Source of the DNA: a virus
Taxonomy: Duplodnaviria > Heunggongvirae > Uroviricota > Caudoviricetes
IMG/VR virus record: IMGVR_UViG_3300031576_000015
Coordinates: 1 to 29,995 of that record
DNA: 29,995 nucleotides
Strand: one strand, 5' to 3'
The notes beneath the pieces were generated by a model that worked only from the letters and a program-made list of their open reading frames with translations, was not told the DNA's origin and searched no databases. Of the stretch, positions 2,754 to 13,907 are shown piece after piece (position 1 is the stretch's first letter; every line of letters starts with the position of its first letter). The translations under genes were made by a program, and so were the position numbers.

Positions 2754-2957
2754 TCAGAGGTCGAGTCTCCACGACTGATATCCCCCTACTGGCAAAATGA
2801 TCTGGCCCATTCCTGCCACGGCCCCATTCTTGTAAATCAAATGCACTTGCATAGATACCGTCGATTCGTGCTTGTCGCCACCGCGTCCGTGGTTAAAGGC
2901 TGTTACTTGGATGGCTATCGGTGACCCCGGGCCCCCCGGTCCCGCCAGCCGACGCAT
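2754..2957 (-). CDS. Hypothetical protein (67 aa)
   Basis: ATG 2957 with GGAGG at 5 nt inside the recA 3' end; MRRLAGPGG...YQSWRLDL; fills the gap to the next gene. Confidence 0.5.
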   Translation of the reverse strand: MRRLAGPGGPGSPIAIQVTAFNHGRGGDKHESTVSMQVHLIYKNGAVAGMGQIILPVGGYQSWRLDL

Positions 2958-3789
2958 CGCTACCTCCGCTTCCAGATCCGTCAGATGGATAGAGGATGTC
3001 GAACGTGGCTTCAGCAAAGGGACGAGCGCCGTCGTATTTCGCCTTAGCCACTCGTGCCAGCGCGACATGTCCAACCTTTTGGTCCCCTTTCTTGATGAAC
3101 TCCTTGCGACGCACCTCCAACCGCAGGACCGACTCGTGCTTGGACTTATGGCCCATTGGTTCGGTTGTCGCAGGACCATACATGACCCCTATATTATCAC
3201 GAACCTGGTTAGTGAACACAAAGGCCGGTTTGCCCAGCGCCAGCGCAGACTTGATGCGCTTTAGGCCCGCATTCCATAGCCGGACCTCCGGCGAGAATCC
3301 ACTAATGTTTACCTGCTTCTCAAGGTCGTCCTTGCTGACAATGGACGCTGCTGAATCAAACACGACAAGGTCCACATCCTGTTTAATCAGAGAGATCGCA
3401 ATGTCCAGGGCCTCCTCCCCGAACTCCGGGGTACTTATGAGAAGCCGGTCCATGTCCACTCCCAATGTCCGGGCAAAACCTGGCGAGAACGAAACCTCAG
3501 TGTCTATGAAGGCTGCTACCCCACCATCTGCCTGGGTACGAGCGATAGCATTCAGGGCCAAGAAGGTCTTTCCCCCAGACCACGGGCCGAAAAATTCAGT
3601 GATGTGTCCTCTGGGTATTCCTCCCCCTAGGATCTCATCCACGGCCGGCAGGCCGGTGGGGAGGAAGGACACAGTGTAGAGCTCCTCAACGTCACCGGCC
3701 ACTGCCAGCGCACGGGTTCCGTGCTTCTTCTGGATGATGTCCAGCAGTTCCTGCAGTGTCTGCGGGCTGCGCTTCTTCGCCTTCGCCAT
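2893..3789 (-). CDS. recA: RecA-family recombinase (phage type)
   Basis: TG...VD.ILGGGIPRGHITEFFGPWSGGKT (Walker A), AAFIDTE, LVVFDS (Walker B), FTNQVRDNIGVMYG. Confidence 0.95.
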   Translation of the reverse strand: MAKAKKRSPQTLQELLDIIQKKHGTRALAVAGDVEELYTVSFLPTGLPAVDEILGGGIPRGHITEFFGPWSGGKTFLALNAIARTQADGGVAAFIDTEVSFSPGFARTLGVDMDRLLISTPEFGEEALDIAISLIKQDVDLVVFDSAASIVSKDDLEKQVNISGFSPEVRLWNAGLKRIKSALALGKPAFVFTNQVRDNIGVMYGPATTEPMGHKSKHESVLRLEVRRKEFIKKGDQKVGHVALARVAKAKYDGARPFAEATFDILYPSDGSGSGGSDASAGGTGGPGVTDSHPSNSL

Positions 3790-5786
3790 TATAGTCTTCT
3801 AACACTCGCATTCCAGAGAGGCTCATAATAGTCTCCCGGCTGATCCCAACGTTGTAGCATCAGGTGTCTTGAAGCGTCTTGAATGATCATACGGGAATTC
3901 GGGTGGCAGGTGTCGGTGAACCACGCCTCGTTCAGCCCGCCGAAGTCACAGTCGATGACTTCCCGTGCAGTCCATTCCGTCACCGTTGCTGGATCGTTGA
4001 AGAGAAACACCGCCCCGACCGGCCCGGTCACGCCACGCCCCAACGGCTGCCCTGGGATCGGCGTCTCCAGCGTCCCGGTAAACCGGCAGCGCAAGTACCG
4101 GGAGGGAATTTCTGGAGGGAAGACATGCTCCTTTACCCAGACCATGTACGGCCCGAACCCGTGAAACGTCGCGTCCTGTACGGTGATCGGCTCGGGCGGC
4201 GCGGAGGTGGCGACTTCAATTACTTGGGACCGGCACTCCCGCGTCTCAAACCCTTCATAGCGGTAGCGGTTCCCGTAGGCTCCGTGCTGGAGCGCACTCT
4301 CACAGCGATATATCCGGCTCCTCAATAAAACGACGTGGGGGTTTCCCGTGTTTTGCCATGTGTCCGTCCCGTTGCGGCAGTTGTGGACGACAAGACGACG
4401 CACTTCCCACACCCCAGCTCCCGAGGCTTCATGACTTTCACCCTCTGGCCACCGCAGGCCCGCAGAATTGCTGAGGCCCTGGATGCCTACGGCACGGCAC
4501 TCCACCGCACGGTTCCGAAACCCGCGCATGGTCATAAACCCGGCCATGCGGCCATCTGCATTCGGCCATGACAGTACGCGCGAGGCCACACACTGGTCCC
4601 ACGCGACATCATGGCTTTGGTTCTCTGGAAATCCCCCGGGGACGGCGGTAGAACCAGAGGCGTCCCACCAAAATGGCTCGCTCCGAAAGACGTTGTGCGC
4701 GACGGCGCCCATATAGGTCACCCCGTGCGAGGCGTGGCTCACGAAGGCGTGATTGCCGAGGTCTCGAAGCACCACTCGCTCAACCCGTGCCCCACGAGCG
4801 GCCTCCCCCAGCATGTGAAAGTGCAGTCCGTATCGCCCTAGTCGCCCAACAAACCGGCTGGCGCGGTTCGGGTCGGGGGCTACGGGTCCCAGGTACTGCC
4901 CTTCCATATCGGCTATGCGAATCTGCCTACTACCCCCAGCGTGGGCCATGCACAGGATATGCGATCGGCCGCCCGGGCGGCCGGTGATACGCACGTTCCT
5001 GGACAACAGCAACACCTCTGCGCCCTCCGCCGTCCCGTCTGCCCACGGCCCACACCGGGGGTGGGCGTAGCGGAGCGGCCGGTCGATCCGCACGGTCCGT
5101 CCCGAGGTGCTGATGACCACCGCGACATCATACGCATCGCGCCACAACTCGGTCTGCGATGCGGGCGCACCCGGGACGGGAAGCGTAAACCTCGACATCC
5201 CGGGCGTGGTAATTGGGAGCGTCGGCGTCACCGCGATCTCCGCGCCAGCGGGCCACGTCACATCACGGTCTAGTAGAATCTCCGTTTCGCCCGCTTGTGC
5301 ATCGCGGGCTAGGAGCGCCCAGGGCACCTCGTACTTTCCGGCGATCTCCACGTCACAGTCCATCAACCACAACCCGGGGTCCGTAGACAGCGGGATGTCG
5401 GTATGCCCCCCGACGAAGGTACTCTCGTTCACCAAGGGCCAGTGCATCTCGAACGGGTCCGGCGTGATGATCTCAAACCGCCCGTGGTGCTGGATGAAGT
5501 TAGTGCCCACCAGGAGCCTCCGTGCGGCTCCAGGAAGAACTTTGAACCCGGTATGGGTGGTCAGAGTCCCAATGGCCCCATCATCCACATCGTACAGTAG
5601 TGGGGGGAGTGTTGCGGGAAGAGTGACGGTATCAGCAATCGTCGGAAGACGAGCTGATCCTAGAAAGGGAGCCCAAAAGCCGGGGTCGCTCCATCGAGGG
5701 CCTGCTTGTGCAATTACTTCGGTAAGGACTCGCGCAGACGTAGAACGCCCACGCGAGTCCTGAACCGTAAGATCAATATTAGCCAT
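3789..5786 (-). CDS. G8-domain / right-handed beta-helix protein (TMEM2/CEMIP/fibrocystin-like), putative glycan-binding or depolymerising protein
   Basis: WSDPGFW...LP...LLYD G8-type start; AEVLLLSRNVRITG, GRLGRYGLHFHMLG and HAFVSHASHGVT are typical of G8-associated beta-helices; no signal peptide. Confidence 0.85.
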   Translation of the reverse strand: MANIDLTVQDSRGRSTSARVLTEVIAQAGPRWSDPGFWAPFLGSARLPTIADTVTLPATLPPLLYDVDDGAIGTLTTHTGFKVLPGAARRLLVGTNFIQHHGRFEIITPDPFEMHWPLVNESTFVGGHTDIPLSTDPGLWLMDCDVEIAGKYEVPWALLARDAQAGETEILLDRDVTWPAGAEIAVTPTLPITTPGMSRFTLPVPGAPASQTELWRDAYDVAVVISTSGRTVRIDRPLRYAHPRCGPWADGTAEGAEVLLLSRNVRITGRPGGRSHILCMAHAGGSRQIRIADMEGQYLGPVAPDPNRASRFVGRLGRYGLHFHMLGEAARGARVERVVLRDLGNHAFVSHASHGVTYMGAVAHNVFRSEPFWWDASGSTAVPGGFPENQSHDVAWDQCVASRVLSWPNADGRMAGFMTMRGFRNRAVECRAVGIQGLSNSAGLRWPEGESHEASGAGVWEVRRLVVHNCRNGTDTWQNTGNPHVVLLRSRIYRCESALQHGAYGNRYRYEGFETRECRSQVIEVATSAPPEPITVQDATFHGFGPYMVWVKEHVFPPEIPSRYLRCRFTGTLETPIPGQPLGRGVTGPVGAVFLFNDPATVTEWTAREVIDCDFGGLNEAWFTDTCHPNSRMIIQDASRHLMLQRWDQPGDYYEPLWNASVRRL

Positions 5787-5788
5787 AG

Positions 5789-6055
5789 TTAAGGCGCTGT
5801 CCAGCGAAATACATTCAGGTTTACAGTATCCCGAACGAGAGATCCGGAATCGGCGACAGCAGCATATGTCAGTGCATCGCCCTCTGGATCATGAGCAATT
5901 ACCGTAATAGTAACAACCCCACCAGGATTGACTCGGCCATCAACTGGGTTCATGAGAATACTGTCTATGATCGGGCCGAGATTTACGGATGTCGCAACTA
6001 TCTGCTGTGTTACTAACCCTCTTACATCTTGAACCGTAATAGTAATCTGTGCCAT
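5789..6055 (-). CDS. 88-aa Ig-like (PKD/Big-type) protein, out of register (N-terminal F-G hairpin + incomplete domain)
   Basis: NLGPIIDS...VNPGGVVTITVIAHDPEGDALTY...FRWTAP matches the first three quarters of a bacterial Ig-like repeat; strong SD AAGGAGGAG; TAATG coupling to the upstream gene. Confidence 0.85.
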   Translation of the reverse strand: MAQITITVQDVRGLVTQQIVATSVNLGPIIDSILMNPVDGRVNPGGVVTITVIAHDPEGDALTYAAVADSGSLVRDTVNLNVFRWTAP

Positions 6056-6618
6056 TAGTTCTCCTCCTTTAAATTGGCGAACTCTTTGACTTCGTCATAA
6101 CCCGCCTTGGACCTATCCGGTCCCCGATTAATTATCCTTTGCCAGAAGTCCGACGGCACACCCTCAAAACGGCCCGCCGACAGTTCGGAAAGAGTTTTAT
6201 TCAGAGACTCACTGATACGTCGTGCTAGGAAGACGGGAAGACTCATGCCACTTAGCCGGCCGGTGTAGTTCTGGAGATCTGACTCCAGATCCTCATAAAC
6301 GGGCACACCATCGAAGGAAAGCTCTACAGGGACGGCAGGTTCTACATTAACATAAATGCACTCCTGCCCTGGCTCTTCTCCCCCGGTGTAATAGGACATC
6401 ACTGCTGGTCTCTCAAGACTCTGCCCCCGCCTATACAGTTCCTGGATCAGGTCCGCTGACGTGAAATCGTTAAAATCCGGCTGTCTCTGTTCCATCTGGA
6501 CTAGCCCGGCTTCCTCCCGAATCTCCTGAGTCAGAAGCTGCTCCCGGCGCTGTACACTCTTCGAGACCCTGGCCCTCTTGACCGAACGCGAAGGTCTCTT
6601 TCTTGCTCTTTTCTTCAT
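6055..6618 (-). CDS. Hypothetical protein (187 aa) with basic N-terminus
   Basis: ATG 6618 with GGAGG at 7 nt (the track extends it to 6657); TAATG overlap with the next gene. Confidence 0.75.
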   Translation of the reverse strand: MKKRARKRPSRSVKRARVSKSVQRREQLLTQEIREEAGLVQMEQRQPDFNDFTSADLIQELYRRGQSLERPAVMSYYTGGEEPGQECIYVNVEPAVPVELSFDGVPVYEDLESDLQNYTGRLSGMSLPVFLARRISESLNKTLSELSAGRFEGVPSDFWQRIINRGPDRSKAGYDEVKEFANLKEEN

Positions 6619-6817
6619 GTTCCGACCTCCAGACACGAATCTTCCCCGGACGGCCATCAGGCGCTCGAGGAGCTAGTTCCCGTTCCTCCTGATCACGCAG
6701 TGCCAGCACACGCCAGCAATCAATCGAACAGACACGACGCCGGAAGGGCATCCCAGTTGGGATAGCCGGATCTGAGGTGCCACTTAGGGCCTTACGACAT
6801 ACGAGGCAGATGGCCAC
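6470..6817 (-). CDS. C-x2-C...C-x3-C Zn-finger protein
   Basis: GTG start with AGGCGG at 7 nt; CLVC-x22-CSIDC; the tail overlaps the next gene in another frame, so only the N-terminal part is convincing. Confidence 0.55.
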   Translation of the reverse strand: MAICLVCRKALSGTSDPAIPTGMPFRRRVCSIDCWRVLALRDQEERELAPRAPDGRPGKIRVWRSEHEEKSKKETFAFGQEGQGLEECTAPGAASDSGDSGGSRASPDGTETAGF

Positions 6818-7144: not shown

Positions 7145-7585
7145 ATGGAGGGAAATGAGCACATGGACAAGACGAAACCGCGAAAAGTTCATGCCCGAAC
7201 CGAGCCACTCCGTGTGTACTTGGCTGGCAATATGGAACTGCCCTGGCGCGCTCCCATAAAGAAGCGTCTCCAGGAGGCGGGAGCCGTAGTCTGGGAGCCC
7301 GCTGACAACCCCCAACAAAGCGCAGCTCTATACGTTCCCCTTGATCTAAAAATGGCTAAAGAGGCCGATGCCATCCTTGCATATGTCCCCAAAGGCCATA
7401 CGGCCCGGGGTACCCATGCCGAGATGGGGGTCGCTTTTGCCGAAGGCCACCCGATTTGGCTAGTCTGGCAGGACCTCCCCTGGGTCTACAGCTTCTCTGC
7501 CGTTATGGCCTACAAGGTCTACACAGAGCTGGAACCTGCTGTCGAGGATCTGCTGAAATTCGTGAAGCGGCGGGTGTTGGACTAA
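7145..7585 (+). CDS. Nucleoside 2-deoxyribosyltransferase / N-glycosidase family protein (Rcl/MilB-like)
   Basis: RVYLAG, DLKMAKEADAILA and GTHAEMGVAFAEGHP with the catalytic Glu; start 7145 or 7163. Confidence 0.85.
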   Translation: MEGNEHMDKTKPRKVHARTEPLRVYLAGNMELPWRAPIKKRLQEAGAVVWEPADNPQQSAALYVPLDLKMAKEADAILAYVPKGHTARGTHAEMGVAFAEGHPIWLVWQDLPWVYSFSAVMAYKVYTELEPAVEDLLKFVKRRVLD

Positions 7586-7679
7586 TGGCTGGCGAATCAC
7601 GCCGATCTTGGGCGGGAAAAAGGTCTTGGACAGGGTCGCCACAAAGGGACGCTCCGGACGCCCTGTGCCCCGCATGGGG

Positions 7680-8123
7680 ATGAACGCCGGTTGGGCAGGC
7701 AGGGGACCCGGTCGCGCGCAAGGTGGCGGCGGGTTAACCACAGGTTATGCGCCTCCAGCGCCTGATGAGACCAATCCTAAAGATCAGGTAGGCATCAAGA
7801 AACCCCGGCTGTACTTAGTGCCGCCGACCAGCATCATCTATCAGGCCCTGGCAATGCAGGACGGGGCGGCGAAATACGGCCCGTACAACTGGCGGGAGAA
7901 GAAGGTTGTTGCCTCCATCTACGTTGACGCGGCTATGCGGCATATCCTGGCCTGGGTAGATGGTGAGGAGGTGGCTCAGGATAGTGGCTATCCTCACCTG
8001 GCCCATGCCCTAGCCTGTCTCGGCATCATTGTCGATGCCCTAGAGACAGGCAATCTGGTTGACGACCGGCCCAAGCCAGGGGCGACGGCAGCTATCCTTG
8101 AGAGGTGGACTAAGAAGATATGA
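7680..8123 (+). CDS. DUF5664-type dATP/dGTP diphosphohydrolase domain protein
   Basis: NPKD..G.KKP.L.LVP, GAAKYGPYNWR, YVDAAMRH..AW.DGEE...DSG.PHLAHA motifs. The start is probably 7680 (ATGA coupling to a 32-aa ORF at 7585-7683); the track starts at 7608. Confidence 0.88.
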   Translation: MNAGWAGRGPGRAQGGGGLTTGYAPPAPDETNPKDQVGIKKPRLYLVPPTSIIYQALAMQDGAAKYGPYNWREKKVVASIYVDAAMRHILAWVDGEEVAQDSGYPHLAHALACLGIIVDALETGNLVDDRPKPGATAAILERWTKKI

Positions 8124-9497: not shown

Positions 9498-9651
9498 TGC
9501 AGCGTCGGCTCATGAGTGGAGGGCCTTCATTGAAGGACGTTTCGGTAAGAAAAAGCCTATCCACATGACTGTGGAGGAAATCTCTCTAGTAGTCATGGTT
9601 GACATTCTTGAGGTGCTGGAAGGTATAGCGGCAGCACGTAAGGAGAACTAA
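9490..9651 (+). CDS. Hypothetical protein (53 aa)
   Basis: GGAGG SD, ATG 9490, MSDAASAHEW...RKEN*; TAATG overlap with the polymerase ORF. Confidence 0.7.
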   Translation: MSDAASAHEWRAFIEGRFGKKKPIHMTVEEISLVVMVDILEVLEGIAAARKEN

Positions 9652-12600
9652 TGGCTAGTTGCCCAATTCACCCTGGTTGCCATGCGTATGTGCCGTGGAA
9701 CGGGCCGGAGACAGCCCGTCTTGCCGTAATAGGCGAGGGCCCCGGGGCGCAGGAATTCCAGACCGGCCGACCGTTTGTCGGCCCTGCTGGGCATGTACTC
9801 GATACCGAGCTGGCCCGGGTAGGAATTCCTCGCTCCGAGGTCTTCGCCTACAATGCTGTGCCATGTTTTGGCAACACTATCCCGCGTACCCCTACGGAGA
9901 AAGATCTGAAGGTTTGGCGGCAACACCTCCTGGATAAGCTAATCGAGGTGAAGCCAGAGGTGATCCTCGCCGTTGGCGGGTGGGCGACGGGCGCCATTAT
10001 TGGCAAGCGTCGTATCACAACTGAGCAAGGGGCCGAGCGACGGGTACGACTGGCTCCCGACTACGAGCCTTGGGTCATGCCGTGCTTTCATCCGGCGGCA
10101 ACCCTCCACGACCCAAACAAGAAGCCCGACTTCATCAAGACAATTACCCGTACTGAACAGCTGCTCAATGGTAAGATCGTAGAGTGGTACGCGGGATACA
10201 AGATAGTTGATGATACCACCATTGCCGAGGCCGTGTCCGATCTGTCTGACACGGTTCTGTCCGTAGACATAGAGAGTGCTAAGAGCGAGGTTGTGGTAGT
10301 GGGTCTGGGTAATCCAGGCAGGCCTATTTGGGTCTTCCCAGTTGGGCACCCAGAAGTTGATCCTGCGGTCCAGGCACGGCTTCGTGCCGCTGTTCGTGGC
10401 ATTTTCGATGCTACCATGCGGGATGGAATCCGGGTGATGCACAATGGCAAATACGACACGCAGGCCCTAAAGGCAGAGGGCCTGATGTCTATGGCCGACC
10501 GGGGAGTTGATTGGGATGGGGTGTTGGTGGGCCATCTTCTGGATGAGACACGGGCGGACAAGGGGCGGTTGAAGCTGAAAGTCTTGGGGCAGGAGCTGTT
10601 CGGGATCCAACGGTATTGGACTGTCCCAATCTCGACCATGCACACCGTACAGCAGGGCAAGAAGACCGTTACGAAGCTCGTAGAGGTGCCATTGGATGCT
10701 ATGCTCCGCACTGGTCGGGCACGGGAAGTGCCTCTGGAGACCCTGGCGGAATACAATGCCCGAGATGTGGCCCTGACCCTCATGGTCAAGGATGCCTTTG
10801 ATAAGGACTTTCTGGCCGACCAAAAGTTGGTACGTCTGTACCAGAAGCTGGTTCTGCCGGCGTACCATGCCATGGAGCCTATCGAGAGGGCAGGCCTGCC
10901 TACGGATATGCCGACTTTGCAGAAGTTGGAAGTTGACTACGCTACTGATCTTGCCGGTATTGATGCCGAATTGAACCAGATGTTCTCTGGCGAGGTCAGC
11001 AATTGGAACTCCGACGCCCAGCTTCGCAAGCTGCTATTTGATAAGCTGGGGCTACCCGTTGTCCGGCGCACCACCATCGAAAACGAACCTTCGGTAGATG
11101 TGTCCTCTCTCATGCTACTGAAGGGGAATCACCCCGTCATCGACCTGTTGCTCCGTCGGTCAGAGGCGGACAAGCGGGTGACCACGGTCCAGACCTTGAA
11201 AGACCATATCGCGCCCGATGGTCGCATCCACCCTACCTTCGTAGTGGCCGGCCCTTCGACCGGGCGAACTTCGTCCCGTGACCCGAACGTACAGAATATA
11301 CCTCGGGGGAAGGGCATCCGGGACATCATCCGGGCGCGGCCAGGCTACAAGCTGGTGGAGCTGGACTTCAGTCTCATCGAGCTCCGGTGGGGAGCCCATG
11401 TTTACAATGAGCCGAAGCTGAAGTCCCTGCTCCAACAGGGCAAGGACTTGCACCGCTACACAGCATCGTTGGCCTATGGCAAGCCGATGGATGCCATTTC
11501 TTCTTCGGAGCGTACCCACGGAAAGACGGCCAACTTTCTTCTACTGTACGGTGGTGGCCCGGATAAGCTGTCCACCCATTTGCGGGATAACGGCGTTACC
11601 GAGCTGGAGGCACAGCAGGCTCTGGTGGCTATGGGTCAGATGGCTAATTCTGAAGACCCTATCTATTTCCTGGCCCTGGCGCTGTGGAAGGCGTTCCACC
11701 GGGCCTACCCGGCGCTGAAACCGGCACATGAGATGATCACAAGAGAGATCCGGCGCAACAAGACAGTGCGTACCCTGTTTGGACGGGTCCGTCGTCTACC
11801 TGGGATTGATTCAGCCAATCGCAAGGAAGCGATCCATGCTGCTCTGTCAGGTATCAACACCCTTGTACAGGGACCGGCCAGTGATACGATGCTATTGGCC
11901 TTACCCGGCCTAGTGGAGATGGCACCAAAGTATGGTGCCCTCATTGTGGACGTTGTACATGATGCCGTCCTAGCCGAAGTACCAGAGGACCAGGTCATAC
12001 CCTTCGCCAAGCACGCGAAGCAGATCCTGGAAACCCCCGACTTCGCCCAGTTCGATGTCACCTTTGACATCCCAATTCTGGTCGATGCCAAGGTTGGTCA
12101 TTCGTGGGGATCTCTGAAGGACTTAAGGGAGGAAAGTGAAGTGCCGCAAACATACGAAGTACAAGGCCCTACGGCCACCCCGGACCCGAAGGTTTTGCCA
12201 GAGGCGCCTGTGGAAGTAGAGCAAGCTCTCGAACCCTTCGCTGCGGCTCTGGCTTACCAGGCGCGTGGCTGGTCTGTCATCCAGCTCACGGCCCCAGGGC
12301 AGGGATTCCAGGCCGGAGGAAAGGCCCCGGCCATCAACTGGGAACCCTACCAGCATCGGCATGCCACCATACAGGAGATCCAAGCATGGTTCGGTAAGAG
12401 GGGTGATGGTGGTAATGCCGTACCCCATTCAAAGAATGGCAAGCACAACATTGGCATCGTTACGGGGTCCGTCTCGAAGCTAGTGGTCATTGACATCGAC
12501 CCGAAGAAGGGCGGACTGGACTGGTTGAAGGAGAAGAACCTCACGTCGCCTGCCACAGTACGAACTGGCGGCGACGGTCTGCATCTTTATTTCCACTATG

Positions 12601-13907
12601 AGGGGCCGCCCCTGACTAACCGAGCGGGAATGGCGCCGGGTGTGGACATAAGGGCCGAGGGCGGGCAAGTGGCCGCGCCGCCGAGCCTGCACCAGTCGGG
12701 CAAGCGGTACGTCTGGCTGACCCCGGATGGGCTATTGCCGGCAGAACTGCCGGAGCTGCCGGTGTGGTTGGCCGAGGAAATCAAGACTCGGGCCAACGTG
12801 CAGGCGGTCCCGATATCGGGCGAGGGCCGTAACATCCCGCCGGCGCGTATCGACGAGGTGGTGGATCAACTACTGCCCTACTACGTCGAAGGTCGGCGCC
12901 ACGACATGCAACTGGCCCTGGCCGGGTTTCTGGCCAAGCGCAACTACCAGATGGCCGACGTGGAGGATTTGGTGATTCGGCTGGCCAATGCGGCTGAGGA
13001 CACCGGTGAACTCAACGACCGTCTGATGGTTGTGCGGGATACCTATCGGAAGGTGACGGTTGGCGAGACCGTTGCTGGGAGTGACAAGCTGCGGGACTAC
13101 CTGCCAGCCGATGCACTGGACCGGCTCCTCGAGCTGTTTGGTTCTCTTAGGAAGGTGGGCGTTATCGAGGTTATGCACGGCCCAGATTTCGTTGCGAAGA
13201 AGCGGGAAGAGGTGAGCTGGCTCATTGATAAGCTGCTTCCAACGGCCGGTATTTGGATGATGTCAGGCCACCCTGGGGCCGGCAAGACGACCCTGGCTCT
13301 GCAGTTTGCCTTCAGTCTGGCCGCCGGTATGGACCTATGGGGATTGTACGCGGTCCCGAAGGCTGTGAAGGTGTTGTATCTCCAGGCCGACAACCCGCCC
13401 CACATGTTCGAGGACCTGGTTCGTCGGTTGTCACAGCGGATGCCAGGGGCCCTGGCCAACATGTACTTCTCCAATGTCACCAAGTCCATCAAAGTCAACA
13501 CTGAGCAGGGCTATGAAACTATGCGCCAGCTGGTTGAGCTGTATACCCCGGACATGATCCTTCTTGACACCATCCGGGATTTCCATAGTGCTAACGAAAA
13601 CGACCCCACGGCCGTGGCGGAAACATTGGATGCCTTGAAGTCGATCCGGGGTAACCGGTCGATCTCCGTCGGGTTCATCCATCACCACTCTAAGGGATCG
13701 GCTACTGAACGCATGCAGATAGAGAAGCACATGGGATCGATGCGGTTCGTCACCCCGGTGGACCTATCCATGTCCCTGACCTTCGATGAGAAGGAGATGG
13801 GCTATGTCATCCTACGGTTCACCAAGATTCGATGGGCGGCTGGGCAGCAGCCCGTAACTCTGCAACGGAGGGACAACTGGTACGAACACGTTGGCGGGGG
13901 TGTGTAA
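9651..13907 (+). CDS. Fused replication protein: family-4 UDG + 3'-5' exonuclease + family-A DNA polymerase + PrimPol + PriCT + AAA_25 helicase (1418 aa)
   Basis: UDG: GEGPG..E...G.PFVG.AG and HPAA. Exo I/II/III: SVDIES, HNGKYD, YNARD. PolA A/B/C: DFSLIELR, RTHGKTANF...YG, VHD. PrimPol: VVIDID, GLHLYF, DIRAEGGQVAAPPS. PriCT: EGRRHD..LALAG. Helicase: GHPGAGKT, ILLD. Confidence 0.93.
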   Translation: MASCPIHPGCHAYVPWNGPETARLAVIGEGPGAQEFQTGRPFVGPAGHVLDTELARVGIPRSEVFAYNAVPCFGNTIPRTPTEKDLKVWRQHLLDKLIEVKPEVILAVGGWATGAIIGKRRITTEQGAERRVRLAPDYEPWVMPCFHPAATLHDPNKKPDFIKTITRTEQLLNGKIVEWYAGYKIVDDTTIAEAVSDLSDTVLSVDIESAKSEVVVVGLGNPGRPIWVFPVGHPEVDPAVQARLRAAVRGIFDATMRDGIRVMHNGKYDTQALKAEGLMSMADRGVDWDGVLVGHLLDETRADKGRLKLKVLGQELFGIQRYWTVPISTMHTVQQGKKTVTKLVEVPLDAMLRTGRAREVPLETLAEYNARDVALTLMVKDAFDKDFLADQKLVRLYQKLVLPAYHAMEPIERAGLPTDMPTLQKLEVDYATDLAGIDAELNQMFSGEVSNWNSDAQLRKLLFDKLGLPVVRRTTIENEPSVDVSSLMLLKGNHPVIDLLLRRSEADKRVTTVQTLKDHIAPDGRIHPTFVVAGPSTGRTSSRDPNVQNIPRGKGIRDIIRARPGYKLVELDFSLIELRWGAHVYNEPKLKSLLQQGKDLHRYTASLAYGKPMDAISSSERTHGKTANFLLLYGGGPDKLSTHLRDNGVTELEAQQALVAMGQMANSEDPIYFLALALWKAFHRAYPALKPAHEMITREIRRNKTVRTLFGRVRRLPGIDSANRKEAIHAALSGINTLVQGPASDTMLLALPGLVEMAPKYGALIVDVVHDAVLAEVPEDQVIPFAKHAKQILETPDFAQFDVTFDIPILVDAKVGHSWGSLKDLREESEVPQTYEVQGPTATPDPKVLPEAPVEVEQALEPFAAALAYQARGWSVIQLTAPGQGFQAGGKAPAINWEPYQHRHATIQEIQAWFGKRGDGGNAVPHSKNGKHNIGIVTGSVSKLVVIDIDPKKGGLDWLKEKNLTSPATVRTGGDGLHLYFHYEGPPLTNRAGMAPGVDIRAEGGQVAAPPSLHQSGKRYVWLTPDGLLPAELPELPVWLAEEIKTRANVQAVPISGEGRNIPPARIDEVVDQLLPYYVEGRRHDMQLALAGFLAKRNYQMADVEDLVIRLANAAEDTGELNDRLMVVRDTYRKVTVGETVAGSDKLRDYLPADALDRLLELFGSLRKVGVIEVMHGPDFVAKKREEVSWLIDKLLPTAGIWMMSGHPGAGKTTLALQFAFSLAAGMDLWGLYAVPKAVKVLYLQADNPPHMFEDLVRRLSQRMPGALANMYFSNVTKSIKVNTEQGYETMRQLVELYTPDMILLDTIRDFHSANENDPTAVAETLDALKSIRGNRSISVGFIHHHSKGSATERMQIEKHMGSMRFVTPVDLSMSLTFDEKEMGYVILRFTKIRWAAGQQPVTLQRRDNWYEHVGGGV

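Follow-up and report, generated by a model that had tools for sequence, protein, structure and literature searches.

A candidate split-immunoglobulin plug-and-socket joint carrying a G8/beta-helix enzyme in an uncultured tailed phage

The window analyzed here (29,995 nucleotides) is the first 30 kb of the complete 94-kb genome of an uncultured phage (IMG/VR record IMGVR_UViG_3300031576_000015), which has direct terminal repeats and comes from a cave metagenome. Two neighboring genes on its minus strand encode an 88-amino acid (aa) protein (5789..6055) and a 665-aa protein (3789..5786) with TAA-CT-ATG between them. An earlier sequence-only reading had placed both open reading frames (ORFs) correctly and had suggested that the smaller protein is an immunoglobulin (Ig)-like domain out of register, which donates a beta-hairpin to its neighbors. 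The observation is confirmed, and the interpretation as a whole is partly supported by sequence comparisons and structure models. The 88-aa protein (the 88-mer, or extender) consists of an N-terminal F-G beta-hairpin, the plug (codons 1–24, 5984..6055), followed by strands A–E of a Big_9/PKD-like Ig domain without strands F and G, the socket (codons 25–88, 5792..5983), and its stop codon lies in the E-F loop. The 665-aa protein (the cap) begins with a second copy of the donor hairpin (codons 1–24, 5715..5786) and continues through a short linker into a G8-like domain and a right-handed beta-helix. We consider it probable, from sequence comparison and predicted structures, that plug and socket form a non-covalent split-Ig joint between two chains, and that this joint mounts a glycan-degrading enzyme on an Ig stalk.

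The description of the 88-mer draws on its ORF, its co-linearity with tandem Ig arrays, purifying selection and an AlphaFold2 (AF2) model. An exhaustive phmmer search of 1.8 billion representatives with the 88-mer as query gave 2070 hits. The top matches are proteins of 1000–4000 residues with up to 25 repeats, to which the 88-mer aligns contiguously (for example, over residues 2–88 or 4–86), with 30–44% identity to the array repeats over its whole length. The aligned repeats are Big_9, K319L-like PKD and PKD domains (PF17963, PF22352, PF00801); the 88-mer itself scores 22.0 bits with the Pfam Big_9 profile, for which the cut-off is 23.6. In an alignment of 31 array segments, residues 1–24 correspond to the last two strands (F-G) of one repeat and residues 25–88 to the start (A–E) of the next, up to the conserved W-T-A-P in the E-F loop. 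Past this motif the tandem arrays go on with a short loop and then the next hairpin, and the 88-mer stops there. Its strand order is F-G followed by A–E, not a complete seven-strand A-to-G sandwich in one chain. The 88-mer corresponds to a single repeat period of such an array, with the cut in the E-F loop, as the sequence-only reading had it. It belongs to the same sequence family as the tandem Big_9/PKD-like/K319L-like arrays of bacterial surface proteins, but in those the domains are complete and covalently linked in one chain, whereas here one repeat period is a gene of its own.

The out-of-register arrangement is also borne out by fold comparison. In an all-against-all structural search, residues 25–88 superpose only on the first 60–70 residues of Ig domains of 92–98 residues, such as the PKD domain 4xed (residues 0–66 of 97, root-mean-square deviation 1.8) and titin I1 (residues 2–69 of 98); the Ig domain of the lambda tail tube protein is a further match. 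Those structural matches that cover residues 1–88 are two-domain chains (SbsC domains 4–5, SraP), so the hairpin projects as if it came from a preceding domain. In the AF2 monomer model (predicted local distance difference test, pLDDT, 95; predicted TM-score, pTM, 0.69) the hairpin strands at 2–9 and 15–22 precede strands A, B, D and E; the hairpin itself is extended, not folded back onto its own domain. From Ig topology we infer that the hairpin could not occupy its own F-G site in cis unless strand A was given up, because the end of strand G lies at the pole opposite the start of strand A and the V24–P28 link of 3–4 residues is too short to join them.

The hairpins of the two proteins are closely related. 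As pointed out in the sequence-only reading, 13 of their 24 N-terminal residues are identical, which none of 200,000 shuffles equaled; against F-G hairpins from 31 unrelated tandem arrays, each of the two has at most 10 identities in 24 (mean about 6.7). With Met left out the two plugs of the window share 12 of 23 residues, while the G8 plug shares 9 of 23 with its own orthologue from locus L002, an ENA contig. Within the 665-aa protein the best match of a hidden Markov model of the repeat (repeat HMM, A4-HMM) is the N-terminal hairpin. The same holds for 8/8 cap proteins, in which the best match lies at the extreme N-terminus and aligns to the hairpin positions, each match being weak (E 8e-5 to 0.13). 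Inspection of the sequences reveals no lysine in the 88-mer or in residues 1–24 of the G8 protein, so a split-Ig joint would be non-covalent; a SpyTag-like isopeptide lock was considered and is ruled out on the same ground.

Donation of the hairpin in trans, the central proposal of the sequence-only reading, proved structurally plausible in a complex prediction that contained two copies of the 88-mer and residues 1–34 of the G8 protein, with the G8 piece as the scored partner. The interface score ipSAE was 0.74 in 3/3 runs, and the best of three controls reached 0.00; contact agreement between runs was at least 94%, and the pLDDT of the partner was 71–72. Of solved complexes, 58 of 80 pass the mark set for this tool, as do 2 of 110 mismatched pairs; this calibration is rough here given the custom alignment and the three chains. 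In the model, I4, L6 and V8 of the G8 hairpin pack against strand C of the 88-mer (62–69), over the core residues I50, V52, A54, F83 and W85, and A18, V20 and T22 pack against strand A (I30, I33). The contacting residues of the 88-mer are 28–33, 48–54, 60–71 and 83–88, and the G8 hairpin is modeled in the canonical F-G site. The hairpin of the 88-mer should fit the same kind of socket, since its core-facing residues are identical to those of the G8 hairpin or conservatively replaced.

By its AF2 model, fold matches and homologues, the 665-aa protein is a predicted glycan hydrolase or lyase. The model (pLDDT 89, pTM 0.90) has the hairpin at 2–9 and 15–22 (pLDDT 70–78), a low-confidence linker at 23–30 and a compact body from residue 31, which opens with RWSDP (residues 31–35). 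Among solved structures, the TMEM2 ectodomain matches best (8c6i; E 8e-12, TMq 0.56); the Klebsiella K1 capsule lyase ranks next, ahead of many phage tailspikes and depolymerases, and a viral structure library gives like matches, including Gordonia phage minor tail and tailspike proteins. Residues 31–665 share the fold of TMEM2/CEMIP and of these depolymerases, and the model and the TMEM2 match together place a G8 domain before the right-handed beta-helix. Classical tailspikes, however, are trimers with a globular N-terminal anchor domain, and the G8 protein has just the 24-residue hairpin. Among 118 sequence homologues, many (30–36% identical) carry PF10162 (G8) and PF24606 (CEMIP_beta-hel), and 31 alignment columns are invariant over 49 homologues, the 665-aa protein included. 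The window protein itself scores 18.6 bits with PF24606 (cut-off 27.3) and gives no Pfam G8 hit; the cap from locus L008 passes the G8 threshold (25.8 vs 22.9) and that from L011 passes PF24606 (56.9). The name G8 is therefore owed to homologues and fold. On that footing the earlier assignment of a hairpin followed by G8 stands, although the window protein stays below the Pfam threshold for the domain.

Most of the cellular homologues (Kitasatospora, Streptomyces and actinobacterial metagenome-assembled genomes) have a twin-arginine (Tat) signal and a linker before RWSDP, and the phage-type G8 proteins carry the hairpin at the position of that signal. Neither the 88-mer nor the 665-aa protein has a signal peptide, as the sequence-only reading had stated. 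Tat export thus sets the cellular proteins apart from the phage ones. Twin-arginine signals predominate in the cellular set (P0006–P0120; L006, 6001–7812), of which one member lies within a polysaccharide-synthesis cluster. This pattern is consistent with a folded, exported glycan-processing enzyme that was re-used by phages without the signal. P0027 was considered as a phage G8 protein with a miscalled start and was rejected; it is cellular and lies in the polysaccharide-synthesis cluster.

A profile search among small proteins yielded three classes of relatives. Class 1 (11 proteins, that of the window included) has the hairpin followed by Ig strands A–E. Class 2 has a hydrophobic or Trp-rich amphipathic N-terminal helix followed by Ig A–E, without a hairpin, and was found at five loci (L002, 583–843; L004, 2754–2987; L008, 8272–8508; L013, 5275–5502; L014, 5269–5502); at each of them the extender gene comes first, the helix-Ig gene second and the cap gene last. 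None of the class 1 and class 2 proteins has a complete socket, and the end falls at the same loop in all of them. The sequence-only reading had predicted a base protein with an incomplete Ig domain; acceptor-only proteins of this kind exist in the five relatives, between extender and cap, but not in the present genome. The class 2 helix, roughly the length of an Ig domain, leads into an Arg/Pro-rich linker; it is transmembrane-like in L002 and conserved, Trp-rich and amphipathic in the other four. It might shield the socket of its own protein, or it might attach the chain to the tail or to a membrane. Class 3 comprises more than 20 proteins of about 93 aa (L005, 3022–3306; L011, 3559–3858; proteins P0277–P0304) encoded directly upstream of hairpin-first beta-helix enzymes. 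Their hairpin interrupts the DPD/DPLTF motif between strands B and C, and they may represent a third wiring of the same fold.

The three-gene loci contain two sockets and two plugs each. Within a locus the extender and cap hairpins are dissimilar (9/23 identical in L002, 4/23 in L004 and 5/23 in L008, counted by eye), and the extender-type and cap-type hairpins are each conserved between loci. Dissimilar plugs within a locus fit orthogonal pairs and an ordered 1:1:1 chain of anchor, extender and cap. The genome studied here has one type of socket and two similar plugs; two alike plugs are expected if both serve the socket of the 88-mer, in which case self-chaining would be possible. At L010 an 87-aa hairpin+Ig gene is followed by a gene (701–2578) for a 625-aa protein not homologous to the G8 enzyme. 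This protein seems to start with an F-G-like hairpin at about residue 25 of the called ORF, on weak evidence, which tentatively hints that the plug is portable onto different cargo.

In most phages the cassette appears to be an element of the tail module, judging from its gene neighbors. It directly follows a homologue of the podophage GP4 fiber I protein Gp80 in L004 (E 1.7e-45), and in L008, a 63-kb IMG/VR viral contig, a tail-tube gene and a 1106-aa gene, read as tape-measure-like from its position and C-terminus. In L014 it comes after a PhageMin_Tail tape-measure gene and two glycosyltransferase genes, and in L005 after a repeat-rich, fiber-like protein; L010 has a tail-terminator gene nearby, and L011 has portal and prohead-protease genes. 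The role as a virion appendage put forward in the sequence-only reading fits these surroundings. Glycosyltransferase genes (GT2; GT1-like in L014) lie just 5' of the cassette in the tail modules of L004 (216–1031) and L014 (2508–4279). In L005 a direct repeat of about 34 nt, GGTAGCCTTTCGCATTGACGGACA.GTAGGC.TATG, is present in two copies just 5' of the 94-aa gene (2935–3020); it holds TTGAC and may be promoter-like. Other searches for relatives gave no match: blastn of the cassette against phage GenBank records, and pattern scans of IMG/VR and JGI metagenomes with back-translations of the G8 protein or of its alignment. A pattern scan with the small-protein alignment returned only two loci already known, and none of the 88-mer, the G8 protein and the 200-aa neighbor matches a PHROGs family.

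Fibers built by donor-strand complementation or exchange include chaperone-usher pili (Fim, Pap, Caf1), type V pili, TasA, archaeal threads and bundling pili. Their Ig-like subunits lack the C-terminal strand or strands and are completed by the N-terminal extension of a neighbor, and acceptor-only, donor-plus-acceptor and donor-only subunits form the base, rod and tip, as they would in the three-gene relatives. On the phage side, the 88-mer and its class 1 and class 2 relatives have the truncated Ig fold, and homology of the hairpin to strands F-G, together with the predicted complex, would fit an N-terminal extension that supplies the missing strands. The differences are that two strands, an F-G hairpin, would be donated here instead of one, that the system is phage-encoded with assembly proposed in the cytoplasm, that the tip is a 640-residue enzyme, and that a polymer is hypothetical here. 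PapD_N and Usher profiles had no match in the genome and signal peptides are absent, so this is not a chaperone-usher system and would only work like one. SpyTag/SpyCatcher and the hairpin-based DogTag/DogCatcher are engineered split Ig-like domains locked by an isopeptide bond. As in the proposed joint, two proteins are connected when a small part of an Ig-like domain, a short peptide or a hairpin, docks into the rest of it, but the joint considered here would be natural and non-covalent. A looser parallel is provided by the podophages GP4, VP1 and A1002, whose chain-like tail fibers are jelly-roll-like dimers bound to a separate 'rope' protein (PMC13730344). There, too, many small subunits are held by beta-sheet augmentation, but with neither a split Ig nor an enzyme cap; no homologue of the Gp80 fiber was found in the present genome. 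In the full-text literature searched, coverage of which is incomplete, there was no paper that joins donor-strand or strand complementation with phage tail fibers or tailspikes and none on G8 domains in bacteriophages, in line with the statement in the sequence-only reading that no phage example was known. The assembly principle is thus familiar from bacterial pili, and the phage version, as far as sequence comparison and models can tell, appears to be a new variant.

The proposed mechanism would run as follows. The 88-mer would offer a socket, strands A–E with an exposed core, and would carry at its N-terminus a plug, the F-G hairpin of a preceding domain; in the G8/beta-helix enzyme the same plug would have replaced the Tat signal of the cellular homologues. 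The enzyme hairpin would complete the Ig domain of the 88-mer non-covalently in the cytoplasm, probably co-translationally since the genes are coupled (see below), and the hairpin of the 88-mer itself would stay free for a further socket. In the relatives the helix-anchored Ig A–E protein would provide that socket, so that anchor, extender and cap form a chain; in this phage the socket could belong to a second 88-mer or to an unrecognized virion protein. The resulting Ig stalk would bear a polysaccharide-degrading enzyme at its tip and would most likely be an appendage of the tail or of another part of the virion. Binding of the proteins to each other, the length of the chain and its place in the virion of this phage are all conjectured from the evidence above.

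Several points weigh against this proposal. No anchor or other Ig protein was found in the genome, either by regular expressions for hairpin starts and WTAP-type ends, by the repeat HMM in six frames, or by Big_9, Big_2 and PKD profiles, although the sequence-only reading had expected a further ORF of this kind; one plug per chain is consequently left without a known socket here. In the window the cassette lies between an unassigned gene and recA, among recombination genes. At the class 3 loci (L005, L011 and more than 20 others) the hairpin is internal, so that the small protein may be self-complete and the plug of the enzyme has no obvious socket. The alignment behind the 88-mer monomer model was built from tandem arrays, which biases it toward an extended hairpin. 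Likewise, the complex score may only mirror the memory that the model has of intact Ig domains, and it speaks to fold compatibility, not to affinity or specificity.

Does the split exist at all? If a sequencing or assembly error had broken a single gene, if this were a decaying pseudogene, or if programmed frameshifting or readthrough made a fused product, no joint would be needed: in-frame joining would yield an ordinary architecture of hairpin, complete Ig and G8, and the gap between the ORFs is just 2 nt. The gene history speaks otherwise. The 88-mer and its L002 orthologue are 81% identical in protein and 68% in DNA, with a proportion of nonsynonymous differences (pN) of 0.117 and of synonymous differences (pS) of 0.89, a value at which synonymous sites are saturated; the hairpin alone has a pN of 0.10, and strong purifying selection spans the start, the hairpin and the end. 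No slippery site is present, and an independent assembly, by Logan, of the run that is the probable source has the identical sequence over 5500–6300, across the junction, at a k-mer depth of 37. In eight independent contigs the break falls at the same loop, between distinct but translationally coupled genes in mixed reading-frame relations (the same fission in L002, L004, L008, L010, L013 and L014, a variant form in L005 and L011). The junctions include a TAGTG overlap, an ATGA-type overlap, an 8-nt overlap, a 13-nt spacer with its own GGAG, and TAAATG in frame, and since their phase differs between independent contigs, a sequencing frameshift and a conserved recoding signal are both excluded. 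A continuous gene joined across a frameshift is what the sequence-only reading had said would overturn it; that explanation is contradicted, and we reject it as highly improbable.

Granted two genes, the proposed joint leaves room for a special case in which 88-mers chain head-to-tail by hairpin donation into an open-ended homopolymer whose acceptor end is capped by the G8 enzyme. This genome has two plugs for a single type of socket; the plugs are unusually alike, with the same core-facing residues, so that a socket of the 88-mer type should also accept the hairpin of the 88-mer; the strong Shine-Dalgarno sequence on the 88-mer gene and its absence from the G8 gene suggest an excess of extender over cap; and the short G-to-A link, judged from Ig topology, cannot span the domain in cis. 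Yet the dissimilar extender and cap hairpins of the three-gene relatives, with plugs equal in number to sockets, point to a finite, ordered chain, no anchor is known in this genome, and a closed antiparallel dimer is geometrically conceivable, so we regard the homopolymer as unlikely. Interchangeable tail proteins of phages commonly share an N-terminal anchor. This general experience supports a different view, that no Ig domain is completed in trans: the 88-mer would fold by itself, as a permuted six-strand domain or closed swapped dimer, and serve as a small carbohydrate-binding or decoration protein, and the hairpins would be docking peptides that reach another tail component by beta-augmentation. 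The rope-bound fibers of GP4, VP1 and A1002 work by augmentation of this sort (PMC13730344), L004 has a Gp80 homologue beside its cassette, and the hairpin of the class 3 enzymes is without a vacant Ig socket. What makes us think this view quite unlikely is that the socket is incomplete in all class 1 and class 2 proteins and ends at the same loop, that the plug is homologous to exactly the missing strands, that in the complex model it lies in the canonical site, with a confidence that is high compared with the null controls, and that the monomer model does not fold the hairpin back. Returning to hairpin donation, its most extended form would be a chaperone-free, cytoplasmic phage analogue of pilus donor-strand assembly. 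Anchor, extender and interchangeable caps (the G8 glycanase, or the unrelated cargo of L010), all cut from a single Ig repeat family, would assemble by themselves into a fiber of the virion, its length set by the supply of extender; the present phage would have lost the anchor, its plugs would have become alike and the 88-mer would polymerize open-endedly, and the Trp-rich helix might cover its own socket until displaced by a hairpin, as in donor-strand exchange. This scenario is speculative and, in our estimate, rather unlikely as a whole.

The gene arrangement in the window is compact. On the minus strand, a 200-aa gene of unassigned function (6055..6657; without Pfam, PHROG or ESM Atlas match), the 88-mer gene, the 665-aa gene, RecA/UvsX (2893..3789), a small Zn-ribbon-like ORF, an RNase H-like gene and RuvC form a tightly packed string. 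The ATG of the 88-mer gene overlaps the stop of the 200-aa gene (TAATG) and is preceded at 7 nt by the strong Shine-Dalgarno sequence AAAGGAGGAG (6061..6070, minus strand, read directly from the sequence), while the cap gene starts 2 nt after the TAA of the 88-mer gene and has no Shine-Dalgarno sequence of its own. Because of this overlap, the 2-nt gap and the missing ribosome-binding signal, the three genes are taken to be translationally coupled. The 200-aa gene is not common to the loci of the relatives, with which only the two cassette genes are shared. The third-position GC of the 88-aa gene is 0.37, the lowest of 140 ORFs in the genome (median 0.62, standard deviation 0.08); that of the coupled G8 gene is 0.69, and that of the L002 orthologue of the 88-mer is 0.81. 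The low value could reflect separate acquisition or selection on expression. Elsewhere in the window, adjacent plus-strand genes (7145–8123) encode proteins like nucleoside 2-deoxyribosyltransferase and the N-terminal domain of dATP/dGTP diphosphohydrolase, a pair that may be linked to nucleotide-pool editing or modified DNA. A single 1418-aa ORF (9651–13907) fuses UDG-like, family A DNA polymerase, Prim-Pol and AAA_25/KaiC-like helicase domains. No RNA runs containing the window stretch were found.

If the joint is real, it would be a natural, genetically encoded way of bolting proteins together non-covalently through a broken Ig fold, and phages would use it to mount their tail enzymes. It would account for the recurring tiny, unannotated ORFs beside tail-fiber and depolymerase genes, and the gene fission within a domain would be one that is kept by selection. 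The 24-residue hairpin and the 64-residue socket would make a compact tag and receptor for protein engineering or for swapping the receptor-binding enzymes of phages. For phage tail architecture, it would amount to a new assembly principle.

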